From Escherichia phage UoN_LDJ77_1: DNA of 64,000 bases. Below, piece after piece: positions 11,711 to 16,965 of this stretch. The notes beneath the pieces were generated by a model. That model searched no databases and had not been told where the DNA came from. It saw nothing but the letters and a program-made list of their open reading frames with translations. Made by a program: the position numbers and the translations under genes. Location of the stretch: the sequence record OK570375. The stretch is one strand, 5' to 3'. Position 1 is the first letter of the stretch. Each line of letters starts with the position of its first letter.

Positions 11711-12715
11711 TTAACTTACCAATTCAATCCAAGCCGGACGAAGTACATCTTGTACCATTTTAACTAATTCCTTTTTAATCAAAGAAGGATTATCCGCTTG
11801 AGTTAGAGTAATACCTTCACGAGAAGTTTCTTCCAAAATATCTTGAACAGTTAGTCCCATCACCTTTCCAAAATCTTTTGGACCAATTTCGCCAATTTTA
11901 GAAATAACGTTATTTACTCGGTTTAGTGTAACGTAACAAGCTAAAATCCCCACCAATTTGTTATCAGCTTCTGACAGTTCAACTTTAGCTTTAATAGGCT
12001 TATCAGACTTTTTCTTTTCACTAAATTTAGAATTCTTGCATTTGATGGCTACACGATTGCGATTAGGCAGCCAAGAAGGATAACAAGGTTTCAATACATA
12101 TCCTTCAGCGGTAAATACTTCGCCTTTGGCTTCAGCTTTCCAAACACATTTGTTAGCGTCAATTAAACCTGCATTATATACGGTAAAATTATAAGACGGA
12201 ACAACAGAATCCAAATCATTTGGAAGTTTAATAAGATCTTCAAATTTACCACGACCCAAAAGTGGAGCGATTTTAAACCCAAATGAATTACAAAACGATT
12301 CCATCATGTAATCATCAACATAAGTTACATCACCACTTTCGGTAGTGACAATAATGTCAAATACATAAAAATCTTTATCGCCATAATCAACATTCTTCTG
12401 AATGCCAGGTCCAGCGAATTCGCCAAAAACTTGATAAGTCACAACAGCTGAAGTTTCCATAATTTCTTGGACAGCTTTAATAGAATCTTCGTAATTCTTT
12501 AAAATAATTTCATAACCGAAGAAATCTTCAGCAGGAAGAATTGGTCCAGTACGTTTAGCGCAAGTTACTTTATCACGCTCAATAATCAATGAGAAATTTG
12601 TGCCGTGAATCTTTTCACGAGCTACCCATTCGCCGCCAGTCAATCCCAAGCTATAAAGTTTTTCAATAAATTTAGAGTTGTAATGATTTTCAAGACTGCT
12701 ATACTTTTTAAACAT
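11711..12715 (-). CDS. rnlB: RNA ligase 2
   Basis: 334-aa ORF with nucleotidyltransferase motif KIHGTN; position after gene 24 as in T4. Confidence 0.9.
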
Positions 12716-13205: not shown

Positions 13206-13273
13206 GTTATCGAGTTGGTGCCATTATATACATCATTTTCTGAGTGTGTTTTGTGTGCTTTCAAAATGAAGAA

Positions 13274-13290
13274 AGGGGCCGAAGCCCCTT
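13274..13290 (-). terminator. terminator after hoc
   Basis: GGGGC-UUCG-GCCCC hairpin on minus strand followed by U-rich tract. Confidence 0.65.
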
Positions 13291-13294
13291 ATGA

Positions 13295-14713
13295 TTATGG
13301 ATAGGTATAGATGATACCAGTTTCTAAAGCAGTTTTATGAATGATGTATCCATTACGCGATTCTTGGACATCAACTTCTGGATAGTCTTTCATCATCTTC
13401 TGAAGAGTGTAACGATGCAGGTAGTATTTACTATCTGGATCTTCAGTTTTCCAATCTTTACCTTCTTCAGTCATTTTTTGGATTTCATCCATAACCCACC
13501 AACCGCACCAGATGTAAGCTGAAGTGCGATGTGGAAGAGGATGAACATAAGGCAATTCACCTTCTGGTTCTGGAGCAACTTTATCAGTTACCTGAACTTG
13601 ACCTTCTGCTGTGATAGTTTTGCTATCATAATCAGTAGCAGTAACAGTTGCAGTAACTTCAATAGTTTGACTTCCAATAGATGATGTATCAACAGTGTAT
13701 ACATTAGTTGACCCTTCTACTGGAGAAGAATCTTTCTTCCATGAATATTCGATTTGTGCTTCTTCTGGAGCATCCGTAACATTAGCAGTAAATGTAGCCG
13801 AAGCATCTTGCTGAACGTTAATAGAAGGAGGAGTCAATGTAACCCGTGGATTCATTGTTTTCTTATTAACAGTCAATGATACTTCATTAGAAGTAACTTC
13901 CTTTTCATTGTAATTTTCTGCAGTTACTTGCGCTACACACTTAACTGTTTTAGCTCCAACTGTGGTAGGAGTATAGTTAAATGTAGTAGTAGTTTCTCCA
14001 TCGACCAGAGAACCGTCAACATACCACTGATACGTAGCAGACGCTCCTGGTGGCTGTGAAGCTAAGGCAGCAGTAAATTCAACGGCTGTTCCAATTACTC
14101 CGGCAGCAGGATTAGCAGGAGTTACAGATAGGGTAGTCGTTTGTGTTTTCTTGTTAACAGTCAAAGATACTTCATTCGAAGTAACTTCCTTTTCATTGTA
14201 ATTTTCAGCAGTTACTTGGGCTACGCATTTAATTCTTTTAACCCCACTTGTAGTTGGAGTGTAATTGAACGTAGCATTAGTTTCTCCACCAACTTGTGAA
14301 TCATCTACATACCACTGATACGTAGCAGATGCTCCTAGCGGCTGCGAAGCTAAGGCAGCGGTAAATTGAACTGGGGTTCCAATCACTCCAGCATCAGGGC
14401 TACCAGGAGTTACTGCCAACGTAGTTGACTGAGTTTTATTTTGAACTGTGATAGTTGTACTAATTTCAGCTGTTTCAGGTTCAGATTCTGCAACTTGATT
14501 GGTTGCAACTACTTTAATAGTCTTTTGACCGGCAGGTCCTTTTAGTACATAACTAAAAGTTGCTGACGTTTCTTCCTGTGGAGCGTCGTCTACAGTCCAA
14601 GCATATGTAATAGGTCCATCTCCAGTTTGACCACTGGGTGTAGCAGTAAACTGCTGAGTCTGATCTATAACTCCAGTAGGTGTTTTAGGAGTTATATCAA
14701 CTGTAAAAGTCAT
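13295..14713 (-). CDS. hoc: highly immunogenic outer capsid protein Hoc, 4 Ig-like domains
   Basis: 472-aa ORF; Ig-like repeats plus C-terminal capsid-binding region; one extra 96-aa Ig unit relative to 376-aa T4 Hoc. Confidence 0.85.
   Translation of the reverse strand: MTFTVDITPKTPTGVIDQTQQFTATPSGQTGDGPITYAWTVDDAPQEETSATFSYVLKGPAGQKTIKVVATNQVAESEPETAEISTTITVQNKTQSTTLAVTPGSPDAGVIGTPVQFTAALASQPLGASATYQWYVDDSQVGGETNATFNYTPTTSGVKRIKCVAQVTAENYNEKEVTSNEVSLTVNKKTQTTTLSVTPANPAAGVIGTAVEFTAALASQPPGASATYQWYVDGSLVDGETTTTFNYTPTTVGAKTVKCVAQVTAENYNEKEVTSNEVSLTVNKKTMNPRVTLTPPSINVQQDASATFTANVTDAPEEAQIEYSWKKDSSPVEGSTNVYTVDTSSIGSQTIEVTATVTATDYDSKTITAEGQVQVTDKVAPEPEGELPYVHPLPHRTSAYIWCGWWVMDEIQKMTEEGKDWKTEDPDSKYYLHRYTLQKMMKDYPEVDVQESRNGYIIHKTALETGIIYTYP
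13850..14425 (-). repeat. tandem direct repeat (2 x 288 bp) inside hoc encoding two near-identical Ig-like domains
   Basis: Units 13850-14137 and 14138-14425 visibly near-identical at DNA level with scattered mismatches; protein units nearly identical. Confidence 0.85.
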
Positions 14714-15403: not shown

Positions 15404-15416
15404 AATATTTCCTCAG

Positions 15417-15424
15417 TATAAATA
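15417..15424 (+). promoter_or_regulatory. late promoter TATAAATA (uvsW)
   Basis: Exact motif 30 nt upstream of uvsW. Confidence 0.65.
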
Positions 15425-15453
15425 TAGATATATTTATTACATGGTATTTAGAC

Positions 15454-16965
15454 ATGACTGACATTAAAGTACATTTTTATGATTTTAGTCACGTGAGAAT
15501 TGATTGTGAAGAAAGTACATTTCATGAACTCCGTGATTTCTTTAGCTTTGAAGCTGATGGGTATCGTTTTAATCCGAAGTACAGATATGGCCACTGGGAT
15601 GGACGAATCCGTCTTTTAGATTATAATCGTCTTCTTCCATTCGGCTTAGTCGGGCAAATTAAAAAGTTCTGTGATAACTTTGGCTATAAAGCCTGGATTG
15701 ACCCGCAAATTAACGAAAAAGAAGAATTATCAAGAAAAGATTTTGATGAATGGCTTTCTAAATTAGAAATCTATTCAGGAAATAAAAGAATTGAACCGCA
15801 CTGGTATCAAAAAGATGCAGTGTTCGAAGGATTAGTTAATCGTCGTAGAATTCTTAATCTTCCAACATCTGCAGGTAAATCGTTAATTCAAGCTTTGCTT
15901 GCGCGATATTATTTGGAAAATTATGAAGGTAAAATTCTTATCATTGTTCCAACAACTGCTCTGACAACTCAGATGGCTGATGACTTCGTCGACTATCGTC
16001 TATTCAGTCATGCAATGATAAAGAAAATTGGTGGCGGAGCATCAAAAGATGATAAATATAAAAATGATGCACCAGTCGTTGTTGGTACATGGCAAACTGT
16101 AGTAAAACAACCGAAAGAATGGTTCTCACAGTTTGGAATGATGATGAATGATGAATGCCATCTTGCTACAGGAAAAAGTATTTCATCTATCATATCAGGT
16201 TTAAATAACTGTATGTTTAAATTTGGTTTGTCTGGTTCATTACGTGACGGCAAAGCCAATATCATGCAGTATGTTGGAATGTTTGGTGAAATATTTAAGC
16301 CAGTAACGACCTCTAAATTAATGGAAGATGGACAAGTAACTGAGTTAAAAATTAATAGTATTTTTCTTCGCTATCCCGATGAGTTCACTACTAAATTAAA
16401 GGGAAAAACTTACCAAGAAGAAATAAAAATTATTACTGGGCTCAGTAAAAGAAATAAATGGATCGCTAAATTAGCTATTAAGCTTGCACAAAAAGATGAA
16501 AACGCTTTTGTCATGTTTAAACATGTATCGCATGGTAAAGCTATTTTCGATTTAATTAAAAATGAATACGATAAAGTTTATTACGTATCAGGGGAAGTTG
16601 ATACCGAAACCCGCAATATAATGAAAACCTTAGCTGAAAATGGTAAAGGAATAATTATAGTAGCTAGTTATGGTGTATTTTCTACTGGTATTTCAGTTAA
16701 AAATCTACATCACGTTGTTTTAGCGCACGGTGTTAAATCAAAAATCATTGTATTACAAACAATCGGTCGTGTATTACGTAAGCATGGTTCTAAGACAATA
16801 GCAACAGTCTGGGATCTTATAGATGACGCGGGCGTTAAGCCAAAATCTGCTAATACGAAAAAGAAATATGTTCATTTGAACTATCTTTTAAAACACGGCA
16901 TTGATCGTATTCAGCGCTACGCAGATGAAAAATTTAATTACGTAATGAAAACAGTTAATTTATAA
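15454..16965 (+). CDS. uvsW: UvsW RNA-DNA/DNA-DNA helicase
   Basis: 503-aa ORF; Walker A PTSAGKS and DECH box; late promoter at 15417. Confidence 0.9.
   Translation: MTDIKVHFYDFSHVRIDCEESTFHELRDFFSFEADGYRFNPKYRYGHWDGRIRLLDYNRLLPFGLVGQIKKFCDNFGYKAWIDPQINEKEELSRKDFDEWLSKLEIYSGNKRIEPHWYQKDAVFEGLVNRRRILNLPTSAGKSLIQALLARYYLENYEGKILIIVPTTALTTQMADDFVDYRLFSHAMIKKIGGGASKDDKYKNDAPVVVGTWQTVVKQPKEWFSQFGMMMNDECHLATGKSISSIISGLNNCMFKFGLSGSLRDGKANIMQYVGMFGEIFKPVTTSKLMEDGQVTELKINSIFLRYPDEFTTKLKGKTYQEEIKIITGLSKRNKWIAKLAIKLAQKDENAFVMFKHVSHGKAIFDLIKNEYDKVYYVSGEVDTETRNIMKTLAENGKGIIIVASYGVFSTGISVKNLHHVVLAHGVKSKIIVLQTIGRVLRKHGSKTIATVWDLIDDAGVKPKSANTKKKYVHLNYLLKHGIDRIQRYADEKFNYVMKTVNL

Follow-up and report, generated by a model that had tools for sequence, protein, structure and literature searches.

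The hoc gene of Escherichia phage UoN_LDJ77_1 contains two head-to-tail units of 288 nt within the 64,000-nt stretch of DNA analysed here (sequence record OK570375; hereafter the window). The comparisons described below make it highly probable that these are old and distinct units, that they belong to an array of one to four units which changes by out-of-register recombination, and that the window allele is itself a product of such events.

The hoc gene and the domains of its product

The hoc coding sequence is located at 13295..14713 on the minus strand and comprises 472 codons plus a stop in the list of open reading frames. In a phmmer search its product matched T4 Hoc (PDB 5vf3_Z, E 1e-217), and it is predicted from its sequence to be Hoc, the highly immunogenic outer capsid (head decoration) protein of T4-like phages. 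The 472-aa protein is 100% identical to a deposited NCBI protein of Escherichia phage UoN_LDJ77_1 that is labelled as a hypothetical protein. The ORFs around hoc, namely an RNA ligase (11711-12715), a 92-aa and a 71-aa ORF, a 226-aa Inh-like ORF and a 503-aa helicase, give the gene order uvsW/inh/hoc/24.3/24.2/rnlB, with hoc downstream of inh and upstream of 24.3, 24.2 and rnlB, as annotated in phages ime09, slur03 and YUEEL01; the identities of these neighbours agree with their Pfam labels. T4 Hoc (376 aa; PDB 5vf3, 8t1x and others) is encoded at the same gene position, in this late-gene neighbourhood. The phage records closest to window positions 1-25000 are those of vB_Eco_Geo (98.7%) and vB_Eco_BGP (98.5%), hereafter Geo and BGP, both of Tequatrovirus type, and the source of the window is a Tequatrovirus (T4-like coliphage).

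Inspection of the flanking sequence revealed a strong intrinsic-terminator-like hairpin, AAGGGGCTTCGGCCCCTT with a T-rich tail, on the minus strand at 13273..13290, 5 nt past the hoc stop codon; Yersinia phage fPS-65 has an annotated terminator at the equivalent position. On the minus strand upstream of inh and hoc, the canonical T4 late promoter TATAAATA had no exact match, the only related sequence there being AATAAATA at 15438-15431.

In T4, Hoc forms a 180-Å fibre in which a capsid-binding domain carries three Ig-like domains (Fokine et al. 2023, PMC10385173); one copy sits at the centre of each gp23* hexamer of the mature capsid, and the protein is dispensable for growth (PMC10385173). 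The Hoc of the window aligns to T4 Hoc in two stretches, residues 1-190 with T4 1-190 and residues 257-472 with T4 161-376, the latter being near-identical (423 bits). Therefore, the extra 96 aa correspond to a second copy of T4 domain 2: T4 Hoc has one domain-2 unit, whereas the window Hoc has two, 82% identical to each other, and is 96 aa longer.

Along the protein, and all on the minus strand, Ig-like domain 1 (aa 1-92; 14438..14713) aligns to T4 Hoc 1-92 and is predicted to be all-beta by AlphaFold2 with a pLDDT of about 90. It is followed by two units delimited by the repeat finders as domain-2-type Ig/PKD modules, unit 1 (aa 93-188; 14150..14437), which has Pfam matches to PKD, PKD_3 and PKD_4, and unit 2 (aa 189-284; 13862..14149), in which the best PKD stretch covers residues 195-265. 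The Ig-like domain equivalent to T4 domain 3 (aa 285-378; 13580..13861) aligns to T4 Hoc residues of about 189-282, is modelled as a beta domain and has only sub-threshold Pfam matches to Ig_3 and I-set (aa 289-373). The putative capsid-binding domain at the C-terminus (aa 379-472 plus the stop; 13295..13579) is near-identical to T4 Hoc 283-376. It retains the HPLPHR motif, in which H395 and R396 are the equivalents of T4 His299 and Arg300, residues with a role in the gp23* contact (PMC10385173). For the whole protein, Pfam returned PKD at 38.9 bits (cutoff 23.5), with PKD_3 and BiPBP_C also above their cutoffs.

An AlphaFold2 model built with 48 homologues showed four all-beta domains over residues 1-376 at a pLDDT of about 90; the C-terminal domain was modelled poorly and with low confidence. 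The best PDB matches of this model in Foldseek were Sidekick-2 Ig1-4, Dscam1 and ICAM-5 D1-D4 (E 1e-12 to 1e-13), all of them crystal structures of four consecutive Ig domains. RB49 Hoc was not retrieved by the PDB sequence search (E <= 0.001) and was not among the top 50 Foldseek matches; the domains are therefore called Ig-like on the strength of generic multi-Ig structures, the Pfam matches and homology to T4 Hoc. From the alignment to T4 Hoc, the Pfam matches, the AlphaFold2 model and the Foldseek search, the Hoc of the window is predicted to consist of four Ig-like domains and a capsid-binding domain, against three Ig-like domains in the 376-aa T4 Hoc, as a sequence-only reading of this DNA had proposed. 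The same architecture of four Ig-like domains and a C-terminal domain is found in ime09 (JN202312), HP3 (NC_041919), pSs-1, BGP, ECP2301 and several BASEL phages. The other 472-aa Hocs are likewise encoded by 1419-nt genes with 92-94% nucleotide identity to the window gene over the full length, but differ from it in the mosaic of unit types.

In domain 2 of PNJ-9 Hoc, MUC2 binding was mapped to S183/L184/T185 (PMC11853027). The motif holding these residues, NEVSLT, was found by inspection in both window units, at aa 180-185 (14159..14176, minus strand) in unit 1 and at aa 276-281 (13871..13888, minus strand) in unit 2. By analogy with PNJ-9, the window Hoc may thus bind mucin via NEVSLT, as a BAM-type mucus adhesin does through its Ig-like domains.

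Divergence and prevalence of the 288-nt units

Tandem Repeats Finder reported one array in hoc, at 13856-14413, with a period of 288, 1.9 copies, 83% matches, no indels and a score of 808, and this is the sole tandem repeat with a score of at least 100 in the 64-kb window. A separate repeat search found a pair of 288-nt copies that lie in register at a spacing of 288 nt and are 82% identical. When the protein was compared with itself, 79 of 96 residues were identical at an offset of 96 aa, and all other offsets from 80 to 109 gave 26% or less; the other Ig domains of the protein share 23-37 identical residues per ~98 aligned in pairwise comparison. The likeness of unit 1 and unit 2 is thus far above chance. 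The 288-nt repeat described in the sequence-only reading is real, in frame and head-to-tail, and both peptides quoted there occur in the 472-aa ORF; the span given for it, 13850-14425, is the same repeat with its phase shifted by four codons (aa 97-288).

The description of the units as nearly identical in protein and DNA, and of the repeat as perfect, did not survive measurement. The two units share 235 of 288 nt (81.6%) and differ at the other 53, and their longest identical run is 29 nt. At the protein level, 17 of 96 residues differ (82% identity). The codon differences comprise 29 synonymous and 17 non-synonymous ones, and the Nei-Gojobori method gave a dS of 0.77, a dN of 0.089 and a dN/dS of 0.115. 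These values indicate that the divergence between the units is old and under purifying selection. The low dN/dS could have accrued while the unit types were the sole units of different phages, and it is no proof of selection on the two-unit state. Variable unit positions tended to fall in predicted loops, a trend that was not significant (mean entropy 0.60 against 0.27, p = 0.09).

We examined how common the two-unit form is among related phages. Megablast with the window hoc matched 656 phage records, many of them over the full-length 1419 nt, including ime09, pSs-1, HP3, JK08 and U115. Unit number was then read from a census in which the four-unit slur03 hoc was the query, so that the matched span in a record equals its hoc length. 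From 60 evenly spread records, 50 could be judged: 31 had one unit (span of about 1131 nt), including T4 at 110187-111317; 17 had two (about 1419 nt); one, ESh34, had three (1707 nt); and one had four (1995 nt), which is slur03, the query itself. A 160-nt query across the junction of unit 1 and unit 2 matched as one contiguous piece in 24 of 60 spread rows; carriers were counted in this way by contiguous pieces, since coverage is uninformative because half-matches in single-unit phages get joined. In the best 120 protein clusters of a large protein collection, Hoc length was 376 aa in 81 clusters, 472 aa in 29 and 568 aa in 7; YUEEL01 Hoc (568 aa) has three units and slur03 Hoc (664 aa) has four. 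Therefore, the two-unit hoc is not rare but a common, ordinary and already deposited variant.

For comparison at the level of single units, we split 122 Hocs, namely the best 120 clusters plus slur03 and YUEEL01, leaving out three (570, 468 and 375 aa) that do not fit the 96-aa unit frame. The 48 pairs of adjacent units in the multi-unit proteins are 56-85% identical at the amino acid level, and the window pair, at 82%, is typical of them. No fresh duplicate was found among these 48 pairs, none being more than 85% identical.

The sequence-only reading had taken the repeat for the result of a recent duplication, in which domain 2 would have been doubled in situ and in tandem within this phage lineage, leaving young and nearly identical paralogues. 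The repeat is exactly head-to-tail, keeps the reading frame and has no spacer, no non-synonymous change separates the two units over their last 72 nt, and Geo, the closest genome in the phage collection, has one unit, all of which would fit such an event. However, DNA identity of 81.6% and a dS of 0.77 argue against youth, as do the occurrence of the two-unit form in about a third of the Tequatrovirus-type relatives and the finding that 0 of 48 adjacent pairs exceed 85% identity. Moreover, tracts of 201-210 nt in the two units are identical to units 2 and 4 of slur03, unlike the neighbouring unit in the window. The Hocs of other T-even phages such as ime09 and HP3 already have four Ig-like domains with similarly diverged units, an observation that the sequence-only reading itself had named as speaking against it. 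We consider a recent duplication very improbable.

We regard it as equally hard to credit that the array is an assembly artefact, in which a single unit was expanded or a longer array collapsed in a short-read assembly. Tandem repeats are a classic source of assembly errors, array length differs between very close genomes, and a search of the contig collection gave no gene on record for exactly this protein. In contrast, the reading frame is intact, the same 1419-nt architecture occurs in many independently assembled genomes and in metagenomes, with recurrences numbering in the hundreds, and the exact protein is deposited in NCBI. Ordinary reads would also be placed unambiguously, given 53 differences between the units and a longest shared run of 29 nt.

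Mosaic units and probable out-of-register recombination

Comparison with individual units of other phages showed that both window units are mosaics. Unit 1 is a chimera, in which nt 1-92 are identical to unit 1 of BGP and nt 79-288 are identical to unit 2 of slur03. In unit 2, nt 88-288 are identical to unit 4 of slur03 and the first ~80 nt resemble slur03 unit 3; nt 90-288 are also identical to unit 3 of YUEEL01 and to the sole unit of fPS-65. More generally, the Hocs of YUEEL01, ESh34 and UGKSEcP1 (568 aa), of slur03 (664 aa) and of the metagenomic allele L035 are built of units from this 288-nt family and share identical tracts with the window units, but carry one or two more units than the window Hoc.

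The three-unit allele L035 is related to the window gene by the removal of 288 nt at within-unit nt 79-93. After this removal, the two genes match exactly at gene nt 1-626 and 844-1419; the residual mismatches, 36 in number, all fall within unit 2. The one-unit hoc of Geo is in turn related to the window gene by the removal of 288 nt at within-unit nt 79-93, with 13 residual mismatches near the breakpoint. In the window, the inferred crossover interval corresponds to 14345..14359 in unit 1 (minus strand), within the block coding for FTAALASQP, and its partner site for an out-of-register crossover would be the conserved block at the same within-unit nt 79-93 of unit 2 (14057..14071, minus strand). 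The FTAALASQP block contains a 14-nt run that is identical in both window units and starts at 0-based unit position 78. The within-unit interval of nt 79-93 was thus obtained for both the three-to-two-unit and the two-to-one-unit relationship. We infer the direction of each event, contraction or expansion, by parsimony, and the comparisons suggest that the window allele itself is a contraction product.

The window gene comes close to a one-step deletion of a known three- or four-unit allele but does not match one exactly: 36 mismatches remain against L035, 91 against YUEEL01 and, with two deletions, 44 against slur03. For the other one-unit genes, the best fit was given by deletions at within-unit nt 1-6 or 262-273, with 25-42 residual mismatches. 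At the protein level, three single-unit Hocs approximate three distinct 96-aa deletions of the window Hoc.

The flanks of the array are unchanged between the closest genomes. Outside the array, the hoc genes of the window, Geo and BGP agree at every position (276 + 567 = 843 nt), and their 681-nt inh genes show 6-8 mismatches. The three are 98.5-98.7% identical over 25 kb, yet their unit number and composition differ. Copy-number polymorphism, chimeric units with breakpoints in conserved blocks and unchanged flanks, the features that define a variable-number tandem array, are all observed at this locus. The relationships to L035 and Geo, the mosaic tracts and the identical flanks therefore support expansion and contraction by recombination, for which the sequence-only reading had already suggested the repeat as a substrate.

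Across sequenced Tequatroviruses, the domain-2 position of Hoc holds one to four 288-nt units in tandem, and the protein accordingly measures 376, 472, 568 or 664 aa. In the mechanism that we propose, the length and composition of the array would change by homologous recombination between units paired out of register, either within one genome or between co-infecting genomes, with the crossovers placed in blocks that are conserved among the units. Window unit 1 would then have arisen from a crossover between unit 1 and unit 2 of an allele with three units; window unit 2 would have been exchanged with another allele.

The two-unit state could also have been founded directly, if two co-infecting phages, each with a single, divergent domain-2 allele, recombined out of register through an illegitimate or microhomology-mediated crossover. 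Under this alternative, the divergence of the units reflects allelic diversity and not the age of a duplication, and there was no ancestral multi-unit array. The unit types of the arrays do occur as the sole unit of 376-aa Hocs, allelic divergence is high elsewhere in hoc (in domain 1, the window and slur03 differ at 39 of 276 nt), and T4-type phages recombine very often on co-infection (PMC9271167). However, the unit types in the arrays are biased to first, middle or last position, which fits descent from ordered multi-unit arrays, and window unit 1 is exactly what a crossover between the first and second units of a three-unit allele gives. Moreover, the junctions between domain 1 and the unit and between the unit and domain 3 share just a few nucleotides of homology, and a founding crossover of this kind would therefore be rare. 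Such an origin appears improbable to us, less so than a recent duplication or an assembly artefact. The two scenarios, crossover of single units and descent from an array, are not mutually exclusive, and out-of-register recombination takes part in both. The unit combination of the window, type 15 followed by type 12, occurs only in its own protein cluster among the best 120 clusters.

Returning to the array of old units changed by out-of-register recombination, a further-reaching reading is that the domain-2 array is a VNTR-like hypervariable locus, which is reshuffled faster than the genome diverges and whose polymorphism is perhaps kept by selection. We put this forward tentatively and lean somewhat against it. 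The selection in question would be for mucus or glycan adherence, or for escape from anti-Hoc antibodies. This reading concerns a population-level observation and not a property of the window. Selection could also act on the ~18% divergence of neighbouring units itself, since 288-nt repeats without such differences would soon be lost at the recombination rate of T4.

Possible consequences of unit number, and Hoc variation in other phages

Each added unit would lengthen the Hoc fibre by about one quarter of the 180 Å of T4 Hoc, or roughly 4-5 nm. With 155 Hoc fibres per capsid, each fibre would also gain one more exposed Ig module with NEVSLT. A longer fibre or an extra module might alter reach, mucin-glycan avidity or antigenicity; a point mutation in Hoc is reported to alter glycan binding (PMC9271167). 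Alternatively, the extra unit may be near selectively neutral, because T4 remains viable as a Δhoc mutant (PMC9271167) and frameshifts or truncations occur in several of the deposited hoc genes. The window hoc alone matters little, being a standard allele of a decoration protein with a documented variable domain number. Hoc is also a platform for T4 display and vaccine work and a proposed mucus-adherence factor of therapeutic coliphages, of which HP3, with its four-Ig Hoc, is an example. The range of three to six Ig domains in the fibres of near-identical phages, together with contraction of the array, bears on strain choice and quality control for therapeutic and display use. Natural unit-number variants could be used to test the effect of fibre length or domain number on mucin binding and immunogenicity.

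In the Rib/alpha-C proteins of group B Streptococcus, too, an exposed and immunogenic surface fibre carries a variable number of in-frame modules in tandem, and recombination changes that number. The repeats of these proteins are typically near-identical in DNA and change at high frequency. In contrast, the units of the window Hoc differ by about 18%, and changes in the array are seen only when isolates are compared.

Variable domain number in Hoc is already described in the literature. Among 650 Hoc homologues the string-of-Ig architecture is kept, and the number of domains rises to 10 in Serratia phage Muldoon (PMC10385173); the Hoc-like protein of Klebsiella phage PMBT63 has one additional Ig-like domain, and domain number varies widely among T4-like phages (PMC13435897); and PNJ-9 Hoc is without domain 3 (PMC11853027). 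In the searchable literature we found no explicit account of the one-to-four-unit polymorphism of the domain-2 array in Tequatrovirus. The Hocs of PMBT63, PNJ-9 and Muldoon, like those of the IMG/VR sequences L008, L009 and L014, resemble the window Hoc in being an Ig string on a conserved capsid-binding domain with gain or loss of whole domains, but they belong to other genera and the domain gained or lost is a different one. The search of IMG/VR gave just four close relatives of the window hoc. In a more distant Tevenvirinae clade from the same source, Hocs of about 280, 375 and 472 aa differ by whole Ig units. PNJ-9 and L014 are cases of domain loss, and L009 is a case of domain-3-type duplication: its 471-aa Hoc contains a tandem pair of domain-3-type units that are 81% identical at an offset of 94 aa.

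Whole-domain gain and loss in distant Hoc proteins

Whole-domain gain and loss of Hoc runs in parallel in a more distant T4-like clade, represented by the IMG/VR loci L008, L009, L011, L014 and L018, in which Hoc lengths fall at 279-282, 367-378 and 471-472 aa. In the 471-aa Hoc of L009, the extra unit repeats the domain-3 type in tandem, the two copies being 81% identical when offset by 94 aa; the equivalent pair in L008 is only 52% identical.

Deleted and interrupted hoc genes

In the laboratory T4 mutant clone T4_7t1 (L003, OL964745.1), hoc (2239-2683) consists of just two short CDS fragments of 198 and 306 nt, indicating a large internal deletion of the gene. Several hoc genes in deposited phage records are also broken or of odd length. 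The two-unit hoc of Escherichia phage FriedrichMiescher/Bas39 (L032, MZ501066.1; 1501-2920) measures 1420 nt and bears the annotation "Hoc part 1 / part 2", and the spans are 1418 nt in ZCEC14, 1430 nt in Ec_YwIITB1, 1132 nt in ACG-C40 and 1130 nt in CE1. Several of the last four records carry two CDS for hoc. The broken and off-length forms stem either from sequencing errors or from true frameshifts that hit a dispensable gene.

Nuclease genes near uvsW and late-promoter cores in the window

In the T4_7t1 record, uvsW and inh are separated by a GIY-YIG nuclease ORF. The window lacks this ORF, and the gap between inh and uvsW there is only ~50 nt (15404-15453). A putative homing endonuclease gene adjoins or lies inside the uvsW helicase region of Bas39 (L032, 144-761); by comparison, uvsW in the window is an unbroken 503-aa ORF (15454-16965). 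Over the whole window there are 19 copies of the T4 late-promoter core TATAAATA, versus 8.3 ± 2.7 expected from shuffles; 0 of 100 shuffled windows contained as many as 19. This excess is consistent with a structural region rich in late genes. No exact TATAAATA lies upstream of inh/hoc on the minus strand, where only AATAAATA occurs, at 15438-15431.

Genome start point and database labels

Since hoc starts at coordinate 13295 both in the window and in three BASEL-collection records (MZ501066, MZ501067 and MZ501096), the UoN_LDJ77_1 genome was evidently linearised at a start point common to those records. A further match is that of the NCBI locus tag LDJ77_00015 with bas39_0015. Some Hoc protein clusters bear the names "endonuclease [Shigella sonnei]" and "endonuclease [Bacillus cereus]", which probably reflect phage contigs within bacterial assemblies. 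For phage HP3, the taxonomy line in RefSeq reads "Rosemountvirus"; despite this line, its hoc region is collinear with that of the window Tequatrovirus at ~92.6% identity.
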